This document shows, one piece after another, positions 1 through 12,204 of a stretch of DNA of 12,204 bases; position 1 is the stretch's first letter; each line of letters opens with the position of its first letter. The stretch comes from Candidatus Methylomirabilota bacterium (GTDB lineage: Bacteria > Methylomirabilota > Methylomirabilia > Rokubacteriales > CSP1-6). The notes under the pieces were generated by a model, which saw only the letters and a program-made list of their open reading frames with translations, searched no databases and was not told the origin of the DNA. Made by a program: the position numbers and the translations under genes. Location of the stretch: assembly GCA_046726415.1 (NCBI GenBank), contig JBKPAK010000256.1:1-12204 (forward strand), read 5' to 3'.

Positions 1-34
1 TCCGGTCCAGCGCCCTCGAGGAGGCCCCCGGCGG

Positions 35-1543
35 CTAACCCACCGTCGTCGAGGTGGCGGGCTCCTTCCGCGCCGGCGCGGGAAGGTGCACATACAGATC
101 CGAGGGTTTCGGCTTCGCCGTCCCGAGGGTCCGGGGCGGCCTCATGGTGTAGGTCACCGGCCGGGCGTGGTCGGCGACCTGCCGCTTTGCGTTGTAGACG
201 CGGTTGAATTTCCAGATCGACTTCGCAAAGTTGGTATGCCCGCGCAGAAGCTGGCCGGCGATGATGCGGGCCGCCCCGCGCATCGCGGAGAAGCCGAGGT
301 GCTTCTGCCGCAGCACGCCCTGCGTCTTCACCAGTTCCGCGTAGAAGCGCTCGAGGGGCAGGCGCGTGGGCAGAACAGCGTGCTGGACGTCGAAGAGCCG
401 GTAGTCCAGCGACGAGAGCGCGCGGGACTCGGTCAGCCACGTCTCCGTCCCCGGATAGGGCGTGTTCACGGTCACGTGGACGATCTCGGGGATACTCAGC
501 GCCCACTCCCGGATGGTGGCGAAGCGCGTCTCGTCCCAGTCGGGATCGGCAATGATGTTCAGGGCCACCGTGAATCCCAGCTCGCGGGCCACCTCCAGAG
601 CTTTGAAGTTATCGCCCGGGGACACGCGCTTGCGGTGAAGCTTGAGACCCTGCTCGTCGATCGCCTCGAGGCCCAGGAACATGTAGTGGAGCCCGAGCTT
701 CCTCCAGTACGCGAAGACCTCGCGGTTCTTCAGCAGCACGTCGCAGCGCGTCTCGAGGTAGTACTCCTTCTTAATGCCTCGCCGCTCGATCTCGCGGCCG
801 ATGGCGTAGCCGTGCTCGGGCCGGATGAAGGCCACGTCGTCCACCAGGAACACGTTGGGCTCCCGGATCTGCGCCACATCCTCGGCCGCGGCCTCCGGCG
901 AAGCCTGGCGGTAACTGCGTCCGTAGAAGGTCCAGGCACTGCAAAAGGCGCAGTCCCAGGGACAGCCCCGGGTGAACTCCACGGAGGCGCAGGGATCGAG
1001 CACCCCGATGAAGTACTTCCGCCGACGGCGGGTGAGGTCGCGCGCGGGAAGATGCTGGTCGAGGGTGTGAAGCAAGGTGGGGTTGGGGCCGCTCCCCTCC
1101 AAGGTCACCACCCCCGGTAGTTTCTCCGCGCCGCCATCGCGCCACGTGTCGAGGAGCGGTGGGGTGACCACTTCCCCCTCGCCCCGCACGACGCAGTCGA
1201 TGGCGCCCCGCGCGTGCTCCAGGATCTCCGAGGCGATGAACGACGCGCTGTGGCCTCCCACGAAGACAAAACAGCCCGGCCGCCGGCGCTTGGTCTCCAC
1301 GGCCAGGTCGATGGCTTCCGGGACGTTGGCCAGGTAGTTCAACGAAAAGCCGATGGCCTCCGGCTCCCACCGTGAGACCTCCCCGAAGTACGTCTCGTGC
1401 GTGAAGATCTGGAGATCGAGGAGACGCACGTCGTGGCCGGCGGCCCGGACCGCCGCGGCCACCCGCTCGAGTCCGAGGGGCTCAAGCCGCAGATAGATCT
1501 CGGAGTACATGAGTGGGCTTGGGTGGACCAGAAGCACTCGCAT
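35..1543 (-). CDS. hpnR: B12-binding radical SAM methyltransferase, probable hopanoid C-3 methylase (502 aa)
   Basis: N-terminal cobalamin-binding domain (MRVLLVHPSPLMYSEIYLRLEPLGLE..., GGHSAS, VVRGEGE) followed by the radical SAM motif C194-PWD-C198-AF-C201 in RGCPWDCAFCSAWTFYGRSYR. The N-terminus, HPS..MYSEI.LRLEPLGLE, CSAWTFYGRSYR and FDVQHAVLPT match my recollection of the HpnR family. Confidence 0.85.
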   Translation of the reverse strand: MRVLLVHPSPLMYSEIYLRLEPLGLERVAAAVRAAGHDVRLLDLQIFTHETYFGEVSRWEPEAIGFSLNYLANVPEAIDLAVETKRRRPGCFVFVGGHSASFIASEILEHARGAIDCVVRGEGEVVTPPLLDTWRDGGAEKLPGVVTLEGSGPNPTLLHTLDQHLPARDLTRRRRKYFIGVLDPCASVEFTRGCPWDCAFCSAWTFYGRSYRQASPEAAAEDVAQIREPNVFLVDDVAFIRPEHGYAIGREIERRGIKKEYYLETRCDVLLKNREVFAYWRKLGLHYMFLGLEAIDEQGLKLHRKRVSPGDNFKALEVARELGFTVALNIIADPDWDETRFATIREWALSIPEIVHVTVNTPYPGTETWLTESRALSSLDYRLFDVQHAVLPTRLPLERFYAELVKTQGVLRQKHLGFSAMRGAARIIAGQLLRGHTNFAKSIWKFNRVYNAKRQVADHARPVTYTMRPPRTLGTAKPKPSDLYVHLPAPARKEPATSTTVG

Positions 1544-1549
1544 AGTCGG

Positions 1550-3466
1550 CTATTCTAGCCTCCGATCCTCAGCGACATAGTCGAATGATCCTTTGCGGAT
1601 ATTGACGAAGAACAGCTCAGGCAGGCTGAACGCGACCCCTCTGAGCCCCGCCCACAGCGTCCGGCCGCGGTCGAACGGCAGGGTGGCCAGGCCGGCCACG
1701 GTCGCCCCCAACCCCGTGACCAGGTTGGCCGCCCCAAAAAGCGGGCGCGCGACCACCACGTCATCGGTAAAGAACAGGAAGTACGAGTCATCGCGGGGTC
1801 GCTCGTAGAGGGTCGAGGTGAGCGTGTTTGACTCCTGCAGGAATACCCGCAGGGCGGAGTGCTGGCGGTAGAGGCGGGCCAAGCTGGCCCGGCGATGCGA
1901 CGGAATTTCGGCCGGTGGCGATGTCCTATAGGTCTTGATCACGGCCGCGGCAGAGACGGCGGGAATGAAGCGCAGCCCGTTCATCTCGAGGTGGCCGCCC
2001 AACCGGCGCTGGGACGCCTCGCGCAGAGCGCGCCCGGCGTCCGCCGCGTCGGGATGGGCGTTGGCGAGGGCGCGATCGATCTCGCGAAAGATCTCGGTGA
2101 CGCAGTTGCGCGTGAGCAGGTGGTATTCGTAGAGGCGCTGCAGCCGTTGGCCATAGTTGGCCTCTCGCGTGGTCACCACCTTGAGGTACTCATCCACGGC
2201 CTGGCCAGCGCGCGGGGGGACGATGAGGCGGCTTGCCGGCGCGCTCCGCGAGGGCGCCTGGCGGCCCGGCAGGAGACGAAGATCGCGGCCTTCGTGGCCG
2301 GCGCGCCAGGCCTCGCTGAGGCGATTGCCCGCCGCTTCCAGCTCGGCGAAGTCCAGCTCCGGAAAACCGCCGTCCGGGCCCGACGGCCTTACGATCCGGA
2401 CCCGGGCTCGCTCGAAGTCGGCGCGCGCCTCGCCGGTGAGCTCGGCCAGCAGGTCCGGCCGCCTGGCCAGACGCCCGCGATCGAGCCTCGGCGCATCGGC
2501 GGGGAACACATCGAGAAATACCCAGGAGCCCGATCGCCGAGTCTGCTCGAGGGCCTCCAATCGGGCCAGGCCCACCAGGAGGGCGCTGCCCCAGTCCGGA
2601 CGTGGCGACCGCACGAGTCGAACAAGGCTTGCCCGCAGGGCTTCCATCAGACCGTCCACGGCGCGCGCTTCACCATCGCGCAGGGCGACGTCGACGGAGG
2701 CCGCGAGCGTGGTGCTCCCGGGAAGGAGACCCCGGCCGTGGTGAATGACCTCCAGCGCCTGGCGCGCCGCCATGGCGTCCGTGTAGCGCTGGGCAAATCC
2801 ATAGACGGCGGGAGGAGCCCGGTCGATGGCGATATCGAGGGGAGGCGCGCCGCTCTCGCGAGGATCGAGCGCGTCGATCTGGCGATCGGCCTCCACCAGG
2901 CGATGGCTCAGAAACTCGGGGCCGTGAACCGCCGCGATGCGCTCGCGCAACGCTTCGAAGGCCCATGACGGCGCGCCGTCCGCAGGGGTGCCGGCGCCAT
3001 CGAAAAAGTATCCGGCGCCCTCCAGCCGCACGGGCGCTACGGGTTCCCCGCGCTGGAGCGCCTGAAACGTCTGGAGCAGCCGCCGATCGGCGGCCAGGGA
3101 GTCCAGCAGCTGGACCTGCTGGTGCTCGATGAGGCGGCGCCGGGTGAAGTGCTGGTGAACGAGGTCGAAGGTCTCCTCGCTGACGGGAATCTGGATCACC
3201 TGAATTGTCCGGTTCTCCAGCAGCGCGTAGTTTCGCCGGAAACCCGCGAAGTCTTCCCGACTGATGCCCAGGAGGCCAGAGTCCATGTACTGGAAGTGGA
3301 AGACCTGCTCGCCAAAGCGAATGGCCGCGTGCCCGCCGCTCGAGCCGGCCTCGTTGGCTTCGACGTAGAGATAGTCGATGGAGGGTGCGGCCGCCGCATG
3401 CGCGGCGGGCGCGACGGTCGCGACGAGCAGCCCTCCGGCGACGAGCCAGCGGCCCGTGGGCCGCAT
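1550..3466 (-). CDS. Exported hypothetical protein (638 aa), putative His-Cys papain-fold (DUF4105/Lnb-N-like) enzyme with large insertion and hydrophobic C-terminus
   Basis: Long ORF packed 1 nt after the upstream stop and 6 nt before hpnR. Sec-type signal peptide (MRPTGRWLVAGGLLVATVAPAAHA). Motifs SGGH46AAIRF, F..NY...ENRTIQVIQIPVS and YEYHLLTRNC455VTEIF. C-terminal Gly/hydrophobic segments. The CDS call is solid; the function is inferred. Confidence 0.8.
   Translation of the reverse strand: MRPTGRWLVAGGLLVATVAPAAHAAAAPSIDYLYVEANEAGSSGGHAAIRFGEQVFHFQYMDSGLLGISREDFAGFRRNYALLENRTIQVIQIPVSEETFDLVHQHFTRRRLIEHQQVQLLDSLAADRRLLQTFQALQRGEPVAPVRLEGAGYFFDGAGTPADGAPSWAFEALRERIAAVHGPEFLSHRLVEADRQIDALDPRESGAPPLDIAIDRAPPAVYGFAQRYTDAMAARQALEVIHHGRGLLPGSTTLAASVDVALRDGEARAVDGLMEALRASLVRLVRSPRPDWGSALLVGLARLEALEQTRRSGSWVFLDVFPADAPRLDRGRLARRPDLLAELTGEARADFERARVRIVRPSGPDGGFPELDFAELEAAGNRLSEAWRAGHEGRDLRLLPGRQAPSRSAPASRLIVPPRAGQAVDEYLKVVTTREANYGQRLQRLYEYHLLTRNCVTEIFREIDRALANAHPDAADAGRALREASQRRLGGHLEMNGLRFIPAVSAAAVIKTYRTSPPAEIPSHRRASLARLYRQHSALRVFLQESNTLTSTLYERPRDDSYFLFFTDDVVVARPLFGAANLVTGLGATVAGLATLPFDRGRTLWAGLRGVAFSLPELFFVNIRKGSFDYVAEDRRLE
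1552..1557 (-). promoter_or_regulatory. Putative -10 element (TAGAAT) for a leaderless hpnR transcript
   Basis: Minus strand reads GGC-TAGAAT-AGCCGACT-ATG: a 5/6 match to TATAAT 8 nt before the start codon. The nearest SD-like GGAGG is 15 nt from the ATG. No clear -35. Confidence 0.45.
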
Positions 3467-3467
3467 C

Positions 3468-3899
3468 CTACTTTTGCGCGTTGTACGCCTTCTGGATGGC
3501 GTTCATCTTCTGCGCGTCGCCATGGCCGAGGTTTTGCTTGTAGGCGTCGACCTGGACCTGGCTGACCTGGGCGCGTCCCAGGCCCTCCCCCACGCCTTCG
3601 TAGGTGACCAGGCTGTCCTCCCAGTTCGTGACGTCGTGCCGCATCGCCAGTTCGCCGATCCGCTTCTGGAAAGCGTCGAACTGGCCGCCCGACTTCGCGT
3701 ACGCCTGCGTGTAGTCGCGCACGTCGTCCCGGTAGGCCGTCTCCTTGCTTTCCGGTGACGAGGACCTCGAGGACCTCGAGCTGCTTTCCGACGAGCCCGC
3801 CGAGCTGTCGGAAGAGGCTGCGGAGGAGGCGGAGAACGAGCAGCCGCTCGCGCCGAGACCCACCACGATCAGGAGGACAAGTAAAGTGTTCATGGTCAT
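3468..3899 (-). CDS. Putative lipoprotein with Ser-rich tether (about 141-143 aa; start ATG at 3899 or 3893, not 3980)
   Basis: Hydrophobic stretch LLVLLIVVGLG then lipobox-like ASG-C (Cys codon 3842-3840). 18 of the next 28 residues are Ser, followed by a compact, probably helical domain (YRDDVRDYT...HDVTNWED...TYEGVGEGL). Stop TAG is followed by G-ATG of the next gene. Confidence 0.8.
   Translation of the reverse strand: MTMNTLLVLLIVVGLGASGCSFSASSAASSDSSAGSSESSSRSSRSSSPESKETAYRDDVRDYTQAYAKSGGQFDAFQKRIGELAMRHDVTNWEDSLVTYEGVGEGLGRAQVSQVQVDAYKQNLGHGDAQKMNAIQKAYNAQK
3759..3780. repeat. Short tandem repeat (CGAGGACCT) x about 2.4 encoding SRS-SRS-S in the lipoprotein tether
   Basis: cgaggacct cgaggacct cgag read directly; the 9-bp unit is in frame. 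Confidence 0.6.
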
Positions 3900-3962
3900 C
3901 CAGCATCCATCAAATGACGCGGTGCTGTCTATAGTCCCGTGGCCTACCGGGGGGCCGCTGAT

Positions 3963-3990
3963 TTGCGTTTCCCGTGCCATCCGCTACCAT
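3963..3990 (+). promoter_or_regulatory. Possible upstream sigma70 promoter (TTGCGT-N16-TACCAT)
   Basis: Partial matches to the -35/-10 consensus with 16-nt spacing in the divergent intergenic region. Confidence 0.3.
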
Positions 3991-4026
3991 GGGAATCCGC
4001 GAAGCGGGCGCCGCCTCCGCGCTGTG

Positions 4027-4055
4027 TTGCGGCATCGAAGCGTCCTCGGTATGCT
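4027..4055 (+). promoter_or_regulatory. Putative sigma70 promoter for tRNA-Leu/tig (TTGCGG-N17-TATGCT) with GC-rich discriminator
   Basis: TTGCGG 4027-4032, 17-nt spacer, TATGCT 4050-4055, then GCTGCCG. Lies 33 nt upstream of the tRNA. Confidence 0.55.
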
Positions 4056-4088
4056 GCTGCCGCGGGAGCGGCAGCCGCTCAATTTTGT

Positions 4089-4176
4089 GCGAGAGTGGCG
4101 AAACTGGCAGACGCGCTGGACTTAGGATCCAGTGGGCCCACAGCCCTTGGGGGTTCGACTCCCCCCTCTCGCACCA
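4089..4176 (+). tRNA. tRNA-Leu, anticodon TAG, CCA encoded
   Basis: Acceptor GCGAGAG/CTCTCGC, discriminator A, then CCA. D-arm GCG-AAACTGGCAGA-CGC. Anticodon stem CTGGA/TCCAG with loop CT-TAG-GA (4123-4125). Long variable arm GGGC/GCCC. T-arm GGGGG-TTCGACT-CCCCC. Confidence 0.98.
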
Positions 4177-4188
4177 TCTGGAGATGTG

Positions 4189-5472
4189 ATGCCGGAAGCG
4201 GCGATGAAGGTCGACGTCGAGTCTCTCGAGGCGTGCAAGCGCCGCCTGTCCGTCGAAGCTCCCCTGGACGTCGTGCAGCAGGCGTGGGAGCGCGCGTACA
4301 CCCGCGTGCAAAGGCAGGCGCGCCTGCCCGGGTTCCGCAAGGGCCACGTGCCGCGCTCGCTCGTGAAACTGCATTTCGCCGACGACGTGCGCCGCGACGT
4401 CGCCGAGCATCTGATTCCCGATCTCTATCGGCAGGCAGTGACCGAGGCCATGCTGGAGCCGGTCGACGAGCCCGATCTGACCGAGGTGCGCCTCGAGGAG
4501 GGAGTCCCCCTGAGCTTCAAGGCGGTGGTGGAGATTCGTCCGGCCATCACCCTGGATCAGTACAAAGGCCTCGACGTCCAGCATGTGCCCACGCCCGTCA
4601 GCGACGAGGACGTCGAGACGGCCCTCGAGCAGATGCGCGAGCATCACGCTGAGTTGCGCAGCGTGGAGCGCCCCGCAGCGCCCGGCGATGTGGTGATCGT
4701 GGATTACACCCTGACCCCCGATGGGCTGGCCCCGAACAGCGAGAGCGGCTACGCCTTCCAAATCGGTGACGGCGCGGTCCTGCCCGAGATCGATGAGGCG
4801 GTGGTGGGCATGCGGGCGGGCGAGGAGCGCGAGGTGGGCGTGCGCTTCTCCGCCGAGCATCGGCGCGCGGAGTTGCGCGACAAGGCTGGGCGGGCTGCCG
4901 TGAAGGTCGTGGAAGTCAAGGAGAAGGTCCGGCCGGTGTTCGACGATGATTTGGCCAAGCAGGTGGGCGAGTTCGAGACCTTGGAGGCGTTGCGAGCAGA
5001 GGTGCGCCGGCAGCTGGAAGAGCGCCGCGAGCGCGACGACAAGGTGGCCCTCGAGGGGAAAATCGTCGACGCCCTCCTCGTCCGCCACGAGTTCGCGGTG
5101 CCGGATGCGCTGGTGATGCGCCAGGTCCAGCATCAGGTCGACCACGCTCGGGCGCGGTTGCGCCGCCAGGGCATCGACCCCGATCAGGTTCCGTGGGACT
5201 ACGACAAGCTGGTGGCCGACCTGCGGCCGGGGGCGGAGCGGGCGGTGCGCCGCACCCTGCTGCTCGACGCGATCGCGAGTGCCGAGGGCGTGGTGACCGC
5301 GGAGACCGAGATCGACGCGGAGATCGAGAAACTGGCGGCGGCCAGCCGGCGGCCCGCCCCCGCGGTTCGGCGTATGATGGAGAAGGGCGGCGACCTGGAC
5401 AACCTGCGCGCCAGCCTCCGCGAGCAGCAGACGCTCGACCTCCTGATCCGTCACGCGACGGTTCACCCCTAA
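4189..5472 (+). CDS. tig: Trigger factor (start ATG 4189 after GGAG; alternative 4204)
   Basis: Ribosome-binding signature LPGFRKGHVP, central FKBP-like domain and helical C-terminal domain. Canonical tRNA-Leu-tig-clpP-clpX synteny. The ORF-track start at 4132 lies inside the tRNA. Confidence 0.96.
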   Translation: MPEAAMKVDVESLEACKRRLSVEAPLDVVQQAWERAYTRVQRQARLPGFRKGHVPRSLVKLHFADDVRRDVAEHLIPDLYRQAVTEAMLEPVDEPDLTEVRLEEGVPLSFKAVVEIRPAITLDQYKGLDVQHVPTPVSDEDVETALEQMREHHAELRSVERPAAPGDVVIVDYTLTPDGLAPNSESGYAFQIGDGAVLPEIDEAVVGMRAGEEREVGVRFSAEHRRAELRDKAGRAAVKVVEVKEKVRPVFDDDLAKQVGEFETLEALRAEVRRQLEERRERDDKVALEGKIVDALLVRHEFAVPDALVMRQVQHQVDHARARLRRQGIDPDQVPWDYDKLVADLRPGAERAVRRTLLLDAIASAEGVVTAETEIDAEIEKLAAASRRPAPAVRRMMEKGGDLDNLRASLREQQTLDLLIRHATVHP

Positions 5473-5604
5473 GGAAACCTCCCCGCGATGTCGATCTCAG
5501 CAGGCGTGCGGCGGAGGTCGAGCGCGGGGCCGGACATCGCGCGATGGTGGAGCGCGGTCCCCGCGGACCGAGGCGAGCACATGAGAAATGCAAGGAGACG
5601 TCCC

Positions 5605-6246
5605 ATGGCGTTGGTCCCGATGGTCGTCGAGCAAACCCCGCGCGGCGAGCGCGCGTTCGACATCTTTTCTCGACTCCTCAAGGAGCGAATCATCTTCCTT
5701 CCCACCTTCATCGAGGACGAGCTGGCGAACCTGGTGATCGCCCAGATGCTCTTCCTGGAGGCGGAGGATCCCGACAAGGACATCTACCTCTACATCAACT
5801 CGCCCGGCGGGTCGGTGACCGCGGGCATGGCCATCTACGACACCATGCAGTACGTGAAGCCCGGCATCTCCACCATCTGCATGGGTCAGGCCGCGTCGAT
5901 GGGCGCCCTGCTTCTCACCGCGGGCTCCAGAGGCAAGCGCTTCGCACTGCCCCACGCGCGGATCATGATCCATCAGCCGCTGGGCGGCGTGCAGGGGCAG
6001 GCCACCGACATCGACATCCAGGCCCGGGAGATCCTCCGCATGCGGGAGGAGCTGAACCGGATCCTGGTGCACCACACCGGCCAGTCCATGGACAAGATCC
6101 AGCGCGACACCGATCGGGACTTTTTCATGACCGCCGAGCAGGCCAGGGAATATAAAATCATCGACGAGGTCATTTCCTCGAAGCCAACCACCCGGCCCGT
6201 GACCGAAGCGGCGGCCCTGGCCGCGCAGTCGCAGGTGAAGTCGTAG
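5605..6246 (+). CDS. clpP: ATP-dependent Clp protease proteolytic subunit (213 aa)
   Basis: [41 protein letters not shown], catalytic Ser in GQAASMGA, His in IMIHQP, Asp in DRDFFM. SD AAGGAG at 5592-5597. Confidence 0.98.
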
Positions 6247-6267
6247 GGGCGGGGGGAGCGGAGCAGC

Positions 6268-7515
6268 ATGGCGCGCACGCGCGAGACGAACGGTACGCTC
6301 AAGTGCTCGTTCTGCGGCAAGAGCCAGAACGACGTCCGCAAGCTGATCGCCGGCCCCACCGTGTACATCTGCGACGAGTGCATCGAGCTGTGCAACGACA
6401 TCATCGCCGAGGAGTGGGAAGAGGAGAAGAGCCGGGAGATCCGCAGTCTCCCCAAGCCCGCCGAGATCAAGACCGTCCTCGATCAGTATGTCATCGGCCA
6501 GGAGCGGGCCAAGAAGATCCTGTCGGTGGCCGTCCACAACCACTACAAGCGCATCGAGTCGGGGAGCGACGCGGGTGACGTCGAGCTGCAGAAATCCAAC
6601 ATCCTGCTCATCGGCCCCACGGGCTCCGGCAAGACCCTCCTCGCCCAAACACTGGCCAAGCTCCTGCGAGTGCCCTTCACCATCGCCGACGCCACCACCC
6701 TCACCGAGGCGGGTTACGTGGGCGAGGACGTGGAGAACATCATCCTGCGCCTCTTGCAGGCGGCGGACTACGACGTGGAGCGGGCCGAGCGCGGCATCGT
6801 ATACATCGACGAGATCGACAAGATCGCCCGCAAGTCGGAGAACCCCTCCATCACCCGGGACGTCTCCGGCGAGGGCGTGCAGCAGGCCCTCCTCAAGATT
6901 CTGGAAGGTACGGTGGCCAACGTGCCCCCCCAAGGCGGACGCAAACATCCGCACCAGGAGTTCATCCAGGTCGACACGGCGAACGTGCTCTTCGTCTGCG
7001 GTGGGGCCTTCGTGGGGCTGGACAAGATCATCGAGAACCGCGTGGGCCGCTCGGGCATGGGCTTCGGGGCGGAGATCAAAAGCCGCGACGAGCGGCGGGT
7101 GGGGGACCTGCTCTCGGTCATCCAGCCCGAGGATCTGCTGAAGTACGGGCTCATCCCGGAATTCGTGGGGCGGCTGCCCGTCATCGCCACCCTGCACGAC
7201 CTGGACGATCAAGCGCTCGTGCGCATCCTTCGCGAGCCGAAGAACGCCATCATCAAGCAGTATCAGAGATACTTCGACCTCGAGAAGGTGCGCCTCAAGT
7301 TCACCGACGACGCGGTGGCCTCCATCGCGCGGGAGGCGCTCAAGCGCGGCACCGGCGCTCGCGGACTCCGCGCCATTCTCGAGGAGGTCATGCTCGAGAT
7401 CATGTACGAGCTGCCGTCCATCCAGGGGCTGAAGGAGTGCATCATCACCCGCGAGGTGATCATGAATCACGAGCGCCCCGTGCTCGTGACCGAGCCCAAG
7501 GAGCAGTCAGCCTGA
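6268..7515 (+). CDS. clpX: ATP-dependent Clp protease ATP-binding subunit ClpX (415 aa)
   Basis: C4 zinc domain CSFC...ICDEC, Walker A GPTGSGKT, pore loop GYVG, Walker B YIDEID, RKH loop GGRKHP, ClpP-docking loop MGF, TGARGLR. Confidence 0.98.
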
Positions 7516-7663
7516 TACTCGACGGGGGGCTTGGCCTCCCGATCCGACGGTCGTTGCCCGCCTACCGGCTCGCTCCTCCCCGCCTCCCCTGAGGACTGCG
7601 CGGGCGGGGCCGGCTCCGACGCGCGTTGTGCACAATGGGACGGTGCGCGAACATCTCCCGGGT

Positions 7664-8344
7664 ATGAGGGGAACCCTGTACGTCGTGGCCACGCCGATCG
7701 GGAACTTGGAGGACATCACGCTCCGGACCGTGCGCGTGCTGAAAGAGGTCGATCTGATCGCGTGCGAGGACACCCGGCGCACGCGGACCCTGCTCGCCCG
7801 GTACGAGATCGGGACGCCGACCACCAGCTACTTCGAGCACAACAAGCTGCGCAAGGGGCCATACCTCCTGGGACTTCTCGGCGAAGGCAAGTCGCTGGCG
7901 CTGGTGAGCGACGCGGGCACGCCGGGTATTTCCGACCCCGGCTTTCTCCTCGTGCGCGAGGCCCAAGCGGCGGGCATCTCCGTGGTCCCCGTGCCCGGAC
8001 CCTCTGCCGTGATCACCGCCCTCTCGGCCGCCGGCGTGCCGGCCGATCGCTTCGTCTTCGACGGCTTCCTGCCCGTGAAGCCCGGGCGCCGCCTGAACCG
8101 GCTGCGCGGCTTGCGAGATCTCCAGACGACCGTTGTCCTCTACGAGTCGCCGCACCGGATCGTCGCCACGGTGGGGGCGATCCGGGAGATCTTTGGCGAG
8201 GTCCCGGTGGTGCTGGCCCGCGAGCTCACCAAGCAGTTCGAGGAGATCGCCAGGGCGACGCCGTCCGAGCACCTCGAGCGCCTGGCCTCCGCGCCCGTCC
8301 GCGGCGAGTTCACCCTCGTGATTCCCGCCTCGGCGGCGGGCTGA
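7664..8344 (+). CDS. rsmI: 16S rRNA (cytidine1402-2'-O)-methyltransferase (226 aa, short form)
   Basis: [66 protein letters not shown]. Confidence 0.95.
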
Positions 8345-8368
8345 AGTGCGGAGGCCGAGCCGCCCGCG

Positions 8369-8374
8369 TATACT
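8369..8374 (+). promoter_or_regulatory. Putative -10 element (TATACT) for a near-leaderless thiD transcript
   Basis: TATACT stands out in GC-rich context, 10 nt before ATG 8385. No SD between them. Confidence 0.5.
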
Positions 8375-8384
8375 GCCCTCTCGT

Positions 8385-9173
8385 ATGGCCGTTTCCAAGG
8401 CCCTGACCATCGCCGGCTCCGACTCCGGCGGCGGCGCCGGCATCCAGGCAGATCTCAAGACGTTCTCGGCGTTTCGCGTCTTTGGAATGTCGGTGATCAC
8501 CGCGCTCACCGCCCAGAACTCCGTGGGCGTTCACGGCGTGCTGAACGTCGAGCCGGCGTTCGTGGCCCAGCAGATCGACGTGGTGCTCGAGGACTTTGGC
8601 GCCGACGCGGTGAAGATCGGGATGCTCTCCACGGCGGCGATCGTCCGCGCCGTGGTCGAGCGCCTGCGCGCGCATCGGCACGAGCGCATCGTGGTCGATC
8701 CCGTGATGATCGCCAAATCGGGAGATCCACTGCTCCAGCCGGAGGCCCGCCAGGCCCTGATGAGCGAGCTGTTGCCGCTGGCCTATGTGGTGACGCCGAA
8801 TCTCCACGAGGCGGCGGCGCTGGCCGATATGCCGGTGGCAACCGAGGGTGAGATGGAGGAAGCGGCCCGCCGCATCGCCGCCCTCGGCTCCCGCCACGTG
8901 ATCGTGAAGGGAGGGCACCTCAAGGATTCCGCTACCGACCTCCTGTGGGACGGACGCGCCTTCACGCGCTACCCGGCGCCCCGGATCGAGTCGACCTCGA
9001 CCCACGGGACCGGGTGCACGTTTTCCTCGGCGATCGCCGCCGGCCTCGCGCAGGGCTGCTCCTTGGGCGAGGCGGTGCGGGCGGCCAAGGCCTACGTTAC
9101 GGCGGCCATCCGCGAGGGATTTCAGGCCGGGCACGGCGTGGGTACCCTGCGCCATTTCGTGGCGAGCTGGTAG
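8385..9173 (+). CDS. thiD: Hydroxymethylpyrimidine/phosphomethylpyrimidine kinase (262 aa)
   Basis: [67 protein letters not shown]. Confidence 0.93.
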
Positions 9174-9180
9174 GACTCGC

Positions 9181-10029
9181 ATGACCTTATTCAAACGCAC
9201 GCCGCCGCCGGACGACCCCGAGGGGCGCATGTCGTTCATGGAGCACCTCGGTGAGCTTCGCACGCGGATCGTGCGCAGCCTGATAGCCCTGCTCGTCGGT
9301 CTCGTCATCACCCTGCCGTTCAGCGAACGGATCGTCGACTTCCTAGCCCGGCCCATCAAGAAGATGGGCTACACCCTGATCTTCACGTCCCCCACCGAGG
9401 CCTTCTGGGTGCAGATGAAGGTTGCCCTCATGGCGGGGCTCTTTCTCGCGGCGCCCGGCATCCTCTGGCAGGTGTGGCGCTTCGTGGAGCCCGGGCTCCA
9501 CGCCAACGAGAAGAAGTACGCGGTGCCGTTCATCCTGATCGGCTCGGTGCTCTTCATCGGGGGCGGGGCCTTTTCCCTGTTCGTGGTGACGCCGTACGCG
9601 CTCAACTTCCTGCTGAGCTATGCGCGGCCCGGGTTGACCCCCATGATCACATTGCAGAACCACGTGGACTTCCTGCTCAAGTTCACCCTGGCCTTCGGGA
9701 TCGTGTTCGAGCTGCCGCTGGCCATCACGCTGCTCGCCCGCATGGGTGTGGTCTCGGCCAGAATGCTGTCCCGCAACCGCAAGTACGCCATCCTCGGCGC
9801 CTTCATTGTGGCCGCCGTCCTCACCCCGACGCCCGACGTCTTCAATCAGACACTCATGGCCGGCCCCTTGATCCTCCTGTACGAAGTGGGGATCGTCAGC
9901 GCGCGCATCTTCGGGCGGCGGGCCCCCCCACGGAGTCCGGCGGCCTCGAACGGCGGGCCTCCGGATTCCGGCACGATCCCCAGCCCGCCGCCGTCCGCGC
10001 CGGCGGATCAACCCACGATCGGATCGTGA
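9181..10029 (+). CDS. tatC: Twin-arginine translocase subunit TatC (282 aa)
   Basis: MSFMEHLGELRTRI, SPTEAF, QVWRFVEPGLHANEKK, FGIVFELP, AAVLTPTPD, LYEVGI. Six hydrophobic segments. SD AGGA overlaps the thiD stop. Confidence 0.97.
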   Translation: MTLFKRTPPPDDPEGRMSFMEHLGELRTRIVRSLIALLVGLVITLPFSERIVDFLARPIKKMGYTLIFTSPTEAFWVQMKVALMAGLFLAAPGILWQVWRFVEPGLHANEKKYAVPFILIGSVLFIGGGAFSLFVVTPYALNFLLSYARPGLTPMITLQNHVDFLLKFTLAFGIVFELPLAITLLARMGVVSARMLSRNRKYAILGAFIVAAVLTPTPDVFNQTLMAGPLILLYEVGIVSARIFGRRAPPRSPAASNGGPPDSGTIPSPPPSAPADQPTIGS

Positions 10030-11543
10030 TGGACTTCGCGTCCCTCGATCTGCCCGAACCCGTCACCCAGGGCATCCGCCAGGCGGGCTTCGTCACGGCC
10101 ACGCCCATTCAGGAGGCGGCGCTGCCGCTCGCCCTCAAAGGAAAGGACGTGGCCGGTCAGTCGCAGACCGGCACAGGCAAGACGGCGGCCTTCCTGATCG
10201 CCGGCTTCACGCGCCTGCTGCGCTCGCCCGAGCCGCCCCCTGCCCCGGGAACGGCGCCGCGGATACTCATCATCGCGCCCACGCGCGAGCTGGTGGTGCA
10301 GATCGAGGCCGACGCGCGGCTTCTGGGCGCCTTCACCCCGTTCCGGATTCTGGCGGTCTACGGAGGCATCGACTACGCGCGGCAGCGCGACGCTCTCGCC
10401 GCGGGCTGTGACGTGCTCGTGGGCACGCCGGGGCGGCTGATCGACTATCTCAAACAGCACGTGTGGTCGCCCAAGCGCGTGGAGGTCCTCGTCGTCGACG
10501 AAGCCGACCGCATGTTCGACATGGGCTTCATCAGCGACTTGCGCTTTCTCCTTCGCCGCCTCCCCGCCCCCGAGAAGCGACAGTCCTTTCTGTTCTCCGC
10601 GACGCTCTCCTTCCGCGTGCTGGAGCTGACGTGGGAGTTCATGAACAACCCCGCCCAGATCACCATCATGCCGCAGCAGAAGACGGCCGACGGGGTCGCT
10701 CAGACGCTCTACCACGTGGGGCGCGAGGATAAGTTTCGCCTCATCCTGGGGCTTCTGCGGCAGGAGGGGGGCGAGCGGATTCTCATCTTCTGCAACACGC
10801 GCGAGGAGGCGCGGCGTCTGGAGGACCGGCTCACGCGAAACGGCTGGGAGGCCCGCGCCCTGACCGGCGACGTGGAGCAGAGACGACGGCTGCGCATCCT
10901 GAACGACTTCAAGGAGGGCAAGCTTCCGGTGCTGGTCGCCTCGGACGTGGCCTCGCGCGGCCTGCACATCGAGGCGGTCAGCCACGTCGTCAACTGGGAC
11001 TTGCCCCAGGATCCCGAGGACTACGTGCATCGCATCGGCCGCACCGCGCGGGCGGGCGCCGAGGGCAAGGCCATCAGCCTCGTGGACGAGGCCAGTGCGC
11101 TGAACCTCGAGGCGATCGAGAAGTTTCTCGGCCACAAAATCGCCGTGGAATGGCCAGAGGACGACCTCTTCGTGGAGGAAATCAAGCCTTCGACGGAGGA
11201 GCGCCGGCGGTTTGCCGAAGAACGCCGCGCCCGGATCGAGGCCCGCACGCGACGCGATGGGCGGGAGCGGGGGGCGCGTGGCGAACGCCCGCCGCGGCGC
11301 GAGCGACCGCTTCGGCCGGAGGAATCCGCCGATCGTCGCCGGGAGCCCACAGTACCCGCCGCGGAGCCCCGCGAACCGCGCGTGCGGTTCGAAACCGTCT
11401 CGGTGGGGGATCCACTGGGGCCGGTGGCCGCTGGGCCACCTGTCCCAGCGCCCGGCGGTTCCGGCGAATCGCGGGACTCGCGCCGGCGCCGGTCGCGCCG
11501 CCGCCGGCGGGGATCGCCGCCGAGAGGGCCGGCCGGGGCGTAG
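10029..11543 (+). CDS. rhlB: DEAD-box RNA helicase, RhlB-like (504 aa), with Arg/Pro-rich disordered tail
   Basis: Q motif (GF...TPIQ), DVAGQSQTGTGKT, PTREL, TPGRLIDY, DEAD, SAT, SRGLHI, HRIGRTARAG. Segments FSATLSFRVLEL and ALNLEAIEKFLGHKI resemble RhlB specifically. The start overlaps the tatC stop (TGATG); the ORF-track start at 9474 is an in-frame extension through tatC. Confidence 0.85.
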   Translation: MDFASLDLPEPVTQGIRQAGFVTATPIQEAALPLALKGKDVAGQSQTGTGKTAAFLIAGFTRLLRSPEPPPAPGTAPRILIIAPTRELVVQIEADARLLGAFTPFRILAVYGGIDYARQRDALAAGCDVLVGTPGRLIDYLKQHVWSPKRVEVLVVDEADRMFDMGFISDLRFLLRRLPAPEKRQSFLFSATLSFRVLELTWEFMNNPAQITIMPQQKTADGVAQTLYHVGREDKFRLILGLLRQEGGERILIFCNTREEARRLEDRLTRNGWEARALTGDVEQRRRLRILNDFKEGKLPVLVASDVASRGLHIEAVSHVVNWDLPQDPEDYVHRIGRTARAGAEGKAISLVDEASALNLEAIEKFLGHKIAVEWPEDDLFVEEIKPSTEERRRFAEERRARIEARTRRDGRERGARGERPPRRERPLRPEESADRRREPTVPAAEPREPRVRFETVSVGDPLGPVAAGPPVPAPGGSGESRDSRRRRSRRRRRGSPPRGPAGA

Positions 11544-11566
11544 TGCCCGCCGCAGACGAGGCGACA

Positions 11567-12204
11567 ATGGTGAGTGACATGGCCCGGCCAACGATCATCC
11601 TCGAACAAGAGGGGCCGGTCGCGCGGGTGATTCTGAACCGCCCCGAGATCCTTAACGCGGGCAATCGCCCGTGGGTTCGCCGCATGACGGACGTCGTGCG
11701 CACGCTGGCCGAGCGGCGGCCGCGCGTGGTGGTGGTGACGGGAGCCGGCCGCGCCTTCTCCACGGGCGTCGATCTCAAAGCCCTGGCCACCGGCGAGTTC
11801 GGACTGGATGACTTCGTCGCCTGGGAAAGCATGATGGTCGCGCTGGAGCGGCTCGAGGCTCTGACGATAGCGGCCATCAACGGCCACTGCGTGGGCGGCG
11901 GGCTCCAGCTGTCCCTGGTGTGCGACTATCGCCTGGCCAGTGAAGATGCGCTGATCGGCCTGCCCGCGGTCAAGGAGTGTCTGATCCCGTCGATGGCGCT
12001 CTATCGGCTGCCCCGTCTCATTGGGCTGGCGCGGGCGAAGGAGCTGATCCTGCTCGGCGATCTCATCGGCGCTCGCGAGGCCGAGCGCTATGGCGTGCTG
12101 CACCGCGTGGTGTCGGCCGCCGACTTCGCGAAGGCGCTCGACGAGACGATCGAGCGCTTCCTCGCCCTCCCATCGACGAGCGCACTGGCCAGCAAGCGAC
12201 TCAC
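11567..12204 (+). CDS. Enoyl-CoA hydratase/isomerase (crotonase) superfamily protein, truncated by window end (alternative start 11579)
   Basis: My translation: MVSDMARPTIILEQEGPVARVILNRPEILNAGN...VTGAGRAFSTGVDLK...IAAINGHCVGGGLQLSLVCDYRLASEDALIGLPAVKECLIPSMALYRLPRLIGLARAKELILLGD...AREAERYG. No stop before 12204. SD GAGG at 11558-11561. Confidence 0.93.
   Translation, partial: MVSDMARPTIILEQEGPVARVILNRPEILNAGNRPWVRRMTDVVRTLAERRPRVVVVTGAGRAFSTGVDLKALATGEFGLDDFVAWESMMVALERLEALTIAAINGHCVGGGLQLSLVCDYRLASEDALIGLPAVKECLIPSMALYRLPRLIGLARAKELILLGDLIGAREAERYGVLHRVVSAADFAKALDETIERFLALPSTSALASKRL

Follow-up and report, generated by a model that had tools for sequence, protein, structure and literature searches.

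A predicted permuted NlpC/P60-type cysteine enzyme split by a folded domain and paired with a LIC11139-family lipoprotein: a putative substrate-dedicated system

The DNA considered here is a stretch of 12,204 nucleotides from a Candidatus Methylomirabilota bacterium (assembly GCA_046726415.1, contig JBKPAK010000256.1, positions 1 to 12,204), to which we refer as the window. Our analysis centers on an open reading frame (ORF) at 1550..3466 on the minus strand, which comprises 638 codons plus the stop and encodes protein P0001 (638 aa), hereafter the enzyme. ORF, relatives, structure prediction and fold matches characterize it as a putative cysteine enzyme of the permuted NlpC/P60 class, the catalytic core of which is split in two by a large folded domain. 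The gene and the one directly upstream of it, which encodes a lipoprotein of the LIC11139 family, form an almost obligatory pair, and the inserted domain is strongly predicted by modeling to dock the globular domain of this lipoprotein. On balance, we lean toward the reading that the enzyme is dedicated to this one partner and acts on its lipidated N-terminus.

The ORF had been described in a first-pass annotation, made from the letters of the window alone, as an exported protein with a His-Cys dyad. All motifs quoted there are found in the translation at their positions: YLYVEANEAGSSGGH46AAIRF (32–51), FRRNYALLENRTIQVIQIPVSEETFDLV (76–103), YEYHLLTRNC455VTEIFREI (446–463) and F500-I501-P502, and a check of the codons confirmed C455 as the only cysteine of the enzyme. 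Residues 1–25 (3392..3466; here and below, all parts of the gene lie on the minus strand) constitute a hydrophobic N-terminal signal or anchor, which ends in AHA: The segment MRPTGRWLVAGGLLVATVAPAAHA/AAAP reaches Kyte–Doolittle values of 1.2–1.7 near residues 13–22, and AlphaFold2 models residues 5–18 as a helix with a low predicted local distance difference test (pLDDT) score. Judged from these features of the sequence, the enzyme is presumably exported. The N-terminal half of the catalytic core (residues 28–96, 3179..3385) consists of five strands and one helix and carries G44-G45-H46, H57 and N85-R86; its extent follows from secondary structure assignment, invariance and the alignment with TseH and YiiX. 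It is followed by a mostly helical inserted domain (residues 97–446, 2129..3178), which we propose to be the docking platform for the lipoprotein. The C-terminal half of the core (residues 447–530, 1877..2128) contains Y448, N454-C455, the Cys helix 455–468 and the F-I-P motif ending at residue 502, and is delimited by conservation, the AlphaFold2 model, the fold matches and the hints at Lnb_N described below. The polypeptide closes with a highly conserved tail (residues 531–638, 1553..1876) bearing the motifs ESNTLTS, DSxFLFFTDD and RPLFG..N.

This tail is the best conserved part of the enzyme and matches no family. Near-invariant among 252 aligned sequences are E545, D560, F563, F566, R574, P575, G578 and N581 as well as G592, S614, P616, E617, R624, K625 and G626. 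Its end is modeled as a moderately hydrophobic helical hairpin (helices 574–599 and 602–619), within which a Gly/Ala-rich helix (578–596; family mean hydropathy 1.45) is succeeded by an amphipathic one. Apart from the N-terminal signal, the stretch 579–589 with values of 1.3–1.5 is the single moderately hydrophobic segment that stands out in the enzyme. The hairpin is probably membrane-associated; the tail may thus form a membrane hairpin, but might instead serve in the entry of lipid or in some other way.

The residues proposed for catalysis are conserved throughout the family. In 36 diverse relatives G44-G45-H46, N85-R86, Y448, N454-C455 and many residues of the tail are invariant. When the comparison was extended to the 252 aligned sequences, the position of H46 (codon 3329..3331), the proposed catalytic base, proved to be occupied by histidine in 243 and by gaps in the remaining nine, without any substitution. 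The position of C455 (codon 2102..2104), the proposed nucleophile, holds cysteine in 250 sequences, next to one gap and one alanine in a misfit row. Counted over the residues present, this amounts to 243/243 and 250/251, respectively, and the expectation of the first-pass annotation that GH and NC are conserved is thereby borne out. At the position of H57 (codon 3296..3298), which is situated on the strand beside H46, we found 228 histidines, 16 aspartates, one alanine and seven gaps. Because this His/Asp pattern is as expected for such a role, H57 is likely the third residue that orients the catalytic histidine.

Structure prediction with the 36-sequence alignment yielded an AlphaFold2 model of the enzyme with a pLDDT of 90.0 and a predicted template modeling score of 0.86. 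DSSP assigns strands to residues 29–35, 46–51, 54–60, 65–72 and 88–94: H46 is located on strand 46–51, H57 on the neighboring strand 54–60, and C455 begins helix 455–468. In this model the arrangement of His and Cys is papain-like, and the hallmarks of permuted NlpC/P60 enzymes are present, namely a papain-like α+β core in which the His strands precede the Cys helix, a cysteine at the helix N-terminus, a histidine on a strand and a third polar residue. In structural comparison, TseH and, next to it, YiiX match best; the alignment takes in residues 28–96 and comprises 146 residues, which requires both catalytic halves. When folded alone, the insert reaches a pLDDT of 93.8 and would thus be a self-folding domain of about 350 residues; with 15% Ala, 13% Arg and 12% Leu in residues 110–440, it corresponds well to the Ala/Arg/Leu-rich insertion of roughly 340 residues noted earlier, and the predicted papain-like fold with a large helical insert likewise agrees with what had been proposed. 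When the complete model was compared with PDB structures by Foldseek, no match reached E ≤0.001, the best being a talin fragment (E 0.051) and the sole relevant hint the 2A2 protein of Ljungan virus (probability 0.66). A search of all sequences in the PDB with the family profile was negative even at E ≤10.

The nearest named family is Lnb_N (PF13387, previously called DUF4105), of which the enzyme is not a member by the cut-off of that family itself: The Pfam model scores 13.3 bits (E 0.064, residues 444–466; 11.3 bits in the scan of the enzyme's own genome) against a gathering cut-off of 22.2, and an NCBIfam scan of the enzyme gave no match. Among the 36 relatives, 19 match Lnb_N below threshold (E ≤1, lowest E 0.0012), whereas any other Pfam family is matched by one of them at most. 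For a profile comparison, we gathered 16 true Lnb_N proteins from genomes and aligned each catalytic half separately by hhalign. The N-terminal half (E 0.18) places GH on GH and R86 on a conserved arginine, the C-terminal half (E 0.016) matches in Y..NC, in the I-P after it and in a P-S further on; the catalytic residues appear to be in register, at low probabilities. The whole-length comparison gave E 0.22, and neither the tail 531–638 nor the insert aligned meaningfully with Lnb_N-type proteins, including their DUF7840. In the ESM Atlas, too, the nearest named clusters are of the Lnb_N type (score 0.76, to be taken as a lead only). The assignment to a DUF4105/Lnb-like type in the first-pass annotation agrees with the sub-threshold matches and with the apparent motif register, but does not extend to membership. 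From the conserved arginine to NC the Lnb_N consensus counts about 40 residues, whereas R86 and C455 of the enzyme are 369 residues apart; because of this difference in spacing, about 330 residues appear to have been added within the connector. Between H46 and C455 the separation amounts to 409 residues, as annotated, versus an order of 100 in known enzymes and 99 in Lnb (PMC11573676), and it is the folded insert that accounts for this.

In line with the earlier suggestion that domain searches would overlook such a protein, the family is hidden from domain databases because the graft splits the catalytic domain. A word-indexed search yielded 113 full-length relatives, nearly all of 600–690 aa, of which none carries a precomputed Pfam domain, except for one artefact. 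This exception (P0114, 698 aa), an apparent fusion to a B12-binding domain, actually stems from a poor assembly, in which the enzyme gene, ridden with frameshifts, is read through into hpnR. When 1.84 billion cluster representatives were searched exhaustively with HMMER, 941 were retrieved at E ≤0.001 and 554 at E ≤1e-30; in the ESM Atlas the enzyme adjoins a cluster with 1,861 members, which are labeled ‘hypothetical proteins’ and have no Pfam family in common. A word-based search for short forms lacking the insert returned 16 matches, all of them fragments that cover 22–47% of the query, and thus revealed no form devoid of the insert. Among the fetched loci, the family is spread over Rokubacteria/Methylomirabilota, Binatia, Myxococcota, Desulfuromonadales/Geobacter-type and other Deltaproteobacteria, Methylococcales (including the cultured Methylococcus capsulatus Texas and Methyloglobulus morosus), Leptospira and Verrucomicrobiia; within Methylomirabilota it is patchy, the enzyme gene being present in 13 of 121 sampled genomes.

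The lipoprotein that we regard as the partner is encoded by P0115 at 3468..3980 on the minus strand and is recognized by NF033171 (65.5 bits, cut-off 50; 65.1 bits in the scan of its own genome), the NCBIfam model ‘lipo_LIC11139’ for a putative lipoprotein family of unknown function. Its true start is likely M28 (3899). A hydrophobic leader precedes the lipobox cysteine Cys47 (codon 3840–3842), with which the mature chain opens in the strikingly conserved sequence C-S-F-S-x-S-S. Next come a Ser-rich tether, roughly 25–45 residues long, and a C-terminal domain of about 95 aa, which is conserved and in which W120, G131 and G133 are invariant. Across 42 sequences Cys47 is invariant, and S48, S50 and S52 are conserved to at least 90%. 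Many partners also have a motif S-S-P-F-x-x-S-S in common, which is situated inside the tether.

At their junction (TAG-g-ATG), the stop of the lipoprotein gene is separated from the start codon of the enzyme gene by a single base. To place this arrangement in context, all ORFs of 74 related loci and of the window were clustered. Across these 75 loci, the lipoprotein gene is the sole conserved neighbor of the enzyme gene: In 61 loci from several phyla it precedes the enzyme gene on the same strand, and since in 10 of the 14 misses the enzyme gene begins where the fetched DNA does, this corresponds to 61 of 65 testable loci. The enzyme's own genome holds one copy of each gene, adjacent to one another. 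Among the 121 Methylomirabilota genomes sampled, both genes occur in 11 and are adjacent in all 11. Three further genomes have a single gene: one contains the lipoprotein gene alone, in another the enzyme gene is partial, and in the third the enzyme gene starts at base 21 of its contig. The pairing of the two genes is thus almost obligatory. In Leptospira, one locus (L037:498–1157 and 1249–1716) carries two tandem copies of the LIC11139-type lipoprotein gene upstream of the enzyme gene. Furthermore, a 246-base contig from soil RNA-Seq (X20) covers positions 3358–3603 with two differences and spans the lipoprotein–enzyme junction, although the library may contain DNA and the contig is no proof of a single transcript. 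Another RNA run (X22) contained nothing on the stretch. DNA nearly identical to 3358–3603 occurs in soil metagenomes of several studies.

We then modeled the enzyme (residues 27–638) together with the mature lipoprotein (residues 47–170). Three runs gave interaction prediction scores from aligned errors (ipSAE) of 0.84, 0.85 and 0.85, whereas the highest score among three controls was 0.00; at least 53% of the contacts are common to the runs, and the pLDDT of the partner is at least 75. The mark applied to such scores was attained in 116 out of 157 solved complexes, as opposed to 2 out of 215 mismatched pairs; both counts are rough because our own alignments were used. On the side of the enzyme, the predicted interface comprises residues 44–47, 58–60, 454–456 and 502 of the core and residues 108–119, 216–230, 280–299, 357–375 and 402–406 of the insert; on the side of the partner, it comprises residues 47–48 and 74–124. 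Hence GGH46, NC455 and Cys47-Ser48 of the partner are all in the interface list. The best-supported contacts connect the insert segments 216–230, 280–299, 357–375 and 402–406 with partner residues 93–124, and the interface includes the near-invariant polar residues S287, R289, D291 and E370 of the enzyme as well as Y83, F104 and E121 of the partner. The model therefore strongly predicts that the insert docks the globular domain of the lipoprotein.

Computation provides the fold, the conservation of residues, the pairing of the genes and a predicted complex, and from these we infer a mechanism in which the partner would be the substrate and the chemistry that of acyl groups. The enzyme would be an exported, membrane-proximal cysteine enzyme with a core assembled from residues 28–96, which provide H46 and its helper H57, and residues 447–530, which provide C455. 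A helical domain of about 350 residues, grafted into the connector of the two catalytic halves, would offer the platform on which the globular C-terminal domain of the upstream lipoprotein docks. With this domain held in place, the Ser-rich tether would allow the lipidated N-terminal cysteine and its C-S-F-S-x-S-S start to reach the His-Cys site. There, an acyl chain could be transferred to or removed from the N-terminus of the partner via a thioester at C455, comparable to the way in which Lnb and Lnt act on lipoproteins in general, except that the action of the enzyme would be limited to its own partner lipoprotein.

Several observations weigh against this reading. The 25 best-supported residue pairs of the predicted complex all connect the insert with the C-terminal domain of the partner, and the interface residues are not significantly better conserved than the rest (p 0.19 for the insert, p 0.27 for the partner domain). 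Moreover, the partner was modeled from Cys47 as a free end and without lipid. Three loci (L032, L054 and L064) contain no partner gene, nor is one detected in their genomes at E 0.001, and in a fourth (L027) it is located 4.3 kb upstream of the enzyme gene; because 3 of the 65 testable loci have none, the enzyme can exist without a LIC11139 lipoprotein. Ordinary N-acylation is already provided by a canonical Lnt, which the same genome encodes (348 bits, cut-off 132.9). The similarity to Lnb_N stays under every threshold, and the hydropathy of the C-terminal helix (1.45) is below the 1.6 usual for a membrane span.

Among the rival explanations, we give most weight to a phospholipase or acyltransferase that acts on bulk membrane phospholipids, with the lipoprotein as a regulatory, inhibitory or anchoring subunit. 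TseH and YiiX as best structural matches are compatible with this, as are the reported activities of such proteins: Tox-Act1 cleaves phosphatidylglycerol and phosphatidylethanolamine, and phospholipase activity was observed for TseH (PMC12994826). Action on bulk phospholipids has been proposed for TseH and YiiX. An enzyme without detectable partner in three genomes and a position of the most confident contacts, between insert and globular domain and away from the active site, would also be accounted for. However, the mature start C-S-F-S-x-S-S is conserved across phyla, which would be unusual for a mere anchor, and residues 47–48 of the partner appear in the predicted interface along with the catalytic residues, so that we consider this explanation rather unlikely. 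The papain-like fold with its Cys-His pair could equally belong to a cysteine peptidase, which would cut the Ser-rich tether and thereby free the C-terminal domain of the lipoprotein from the membrane. Although tether and the motif beside the lipidated cysteine are conserved, the permuted NlpC/P60 branch is described as directed at lipids and not at peptides (PMC12994826), and tether residues 49–73 are outside the confident interface; a releasing peptidase is accordingly improbable.

That the enzyme is a general lipoprotein N-acyltransferase, standing in for Lnt as Lnb does in Bacteroides, might be supposed from Lnb_N being the only Pfam family hinted at and from TseH being the top structural match of the enzyme, as it is for Lnb (PMC11573676). 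But the canonical Lnt in the same genome and the restriction of the gene to 13 of the 121 genomes sampled from the phylum speak against a general role in the cell, as do the true Lnb_N proteins that occur alongside the enzyme in three of five genomes tested and the lack of the multi-pass membrane domain of Lnb; such a function is very unlikely. Just as little credence is given to a toxin–immunity pair, in which the enzyme would be an exported lipid-targeting toxin and the periplasmic lipoprotein its immunity protein. It is true that TseH and Tox-Act1 are toxins of type VI secretion systems (T6SS) with adjacent immunity genes (PMC12994826) and that the catalytic residues are covered in the predicted complex. 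On the other hand, the window contains no secretion-system or polymorphic-toxin genes, the enzyme apparently carries an N-terminal export signal of its own, its hydrophobic tail is conserved, each genome has one copy, and the lipoprotein gene comes first. Taken together, the reading of the first-pass annotation is supported overall, with the activity of an envelope acyltransferase or peptidase being putative and a general Lnt-like role unlikely.

The preferred reading, a dedicated enzyme acting on the lipidated N-terminus of its own partner, can be specified further. Tentatively, and with considerably more reserve, we suggest a substrate-dedicated tailoring in which an Lnb-like acyl enzyme equipped with a docking domain provides the N-terminal cysteine, or the conserved serines beside it, of one lipoprotein with an acylation unlike that of the Lgt-Lsp-Lnt product. 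The maturation of bacterial lipoproteins is thought to finish with one general N-acyltransferase, which is Lnt, Lnb or LnsAB, and the structure of the lipoprotein N-terminus governs sorting as well as recognition by the host Toll-like receptor 2. If the suggestion is true, there would be an extra, protein-specific step of maturation across the phyla that carry the family, and bacteria could tailor the lipid anchors of individual lipoproteins. A small catalytic domain would in this case have gained substrate specificity by the grafting of a whole folded domain between its catalytic halves. The enzyme–lipoprotein pair may represent a previously undescribed lipoprotein-tailoring system: None of the 941 cluster representatives and none of the 1,861 members of the ESM Atlas cluster is annotated, and our literature searches, for which the sources were accessible in part, found no paper on the enzyme family, on LIC11139 or on a split form of Lnb, DUF4105 or permuted NlpC.

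As for the genomic surroundings, hpnR, which encodes the hopanoid C-3 methylase (B12/radical-SAM; 35..1543, minus strand; TIGR04367 861.9 bits, cut-off 650; B12-binding and Radical_SAM domains), starts six bases past the stop of the enzyme gene. Directly downstream it is found in 3 of the 75 loci, all from the closest relatives, and in other genomes of the phylum it resides on other contigs. As a functional partner it was hence rejected: Because it is a neighbor in close relatives only, hpnR is probably outside the module. It is present, on other contigs, in 12 of the 13 enzyme-bearing genomes of the phylum compared with 50 of 121 overall (the 50 including the unpublished G213), which is no test as the genomes are kin. 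The other neighbors, among them an ATP-binding cassette ATPase, a short-chain dehydrogenase/reductase, a sulfatase and MlaE, were discarded as well, each being present in at most 12 of 75 loci. Between the lipoprotein gene and that of trigger factor lies a tRNA-Leu (anticodon TAG, 4089–4176, plus strand). It is overlapped by the ORF 4132–5472, in which the Trigger_N domain sets in from ORF residue 25, and because of this overlap the start of tig must be later. The region 4132–12202 is devoted to housekeeping: tig is followed by clpP (5488–6246), clpX (6268–7515), a thiD-like kinase gene (8346–9173), tatC (9181–10029), a DEAD-box helicase gene (within 9474–11543) and the gene of an enoyl-CoA hydratase (11150–12202), which continues past the end of the window; the ORF 7531–8406 has no Pfam match.

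How does the enzyme compare with known systems? In fold and catalytic residues it resembles, according to the model, Lnb, TseH, YiiX and LRAT, i.e., permuted NlpC/P60 members, which are described as lipid-directed (PMC12994826) and have the acyl chains of lipids or lipoproteins as their targets (PMC12994826, PMC11573676). The bonds on which the class, LRAT/PLAAT included, acts are fatty-acyl esters or amides. Closest in several respects is Lnb, in which H49, N66 and C148 are the catalytic residues: As is presumed for the enzyme, Lnb has a periplasm-facing permuted NlpC/P60 domain with the order His, polar helper, Cys, and TseH is its top structural neighbor (PMC11573676). The register GH..R..Y..NC appears to be common to both, at the low probabilities given above. 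Lnb_N, however, is a contiguous domain of about 175 residues with His and Cys about 100 residues apart, a contiguity that the enzyme lacks. Moreover, five membrane helices are predicted in Lnb (PMC11573676), whereas the enzyme is devoid of a multi-pass membrane domain; unlike Lnb, it has a single dedicated lipoprotein as its pair and shares its genome with Lnt. Long, true Lnb_N proteins of about 630–680 aa were found in Desulfobacterota and Leptospiraceae (L083, L084 and L089–L101; e.g., L084:499–2481, minus strand), in the former phylum in 16 of 151 sampled genomes. With the architecture DUF7843-Lnb_N-DUF7842-DUF7840 they are near the enzyme in total length and different in build, as the enzyme has none of DUF7843, DUF7842 and DUF7840.

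The remaining relatives by fold are smaller. TseH of Vibrio cholerae, a T6SS effector (PDB 6v98) with 9% identity, is a secreted toxin, compact at about 220 aa, without insert, export signal or LIC11139-family lipoprotein partner. YiiX/YaeF-like permuted amidases (PDB 2if6, 3kw0; 12–15% identity) are small, single-domain proteins that have neither an insert nor the conserved tail. The LRAT/PLAAT acyltransferases and the picornavirus 2A H-box/NC proteins (PDB 7zot, 7zv6) are of eukaryotic or viral origin, act at the cytosolic face and comprise about 120–230 aa, again without insert or partner lipoprotein. By description only, a likeness may finally be drawn to LnsA/LnsB of Staphylococcus aureus, where LnsA, a member of the NlpC/P60 superfamily, takes part in lipoprotein N-acylation and needs a second protein (PMC11573676). 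This second protein, LnsB, is a membrane protein and not a lipoprotein of the LIC11139 family.

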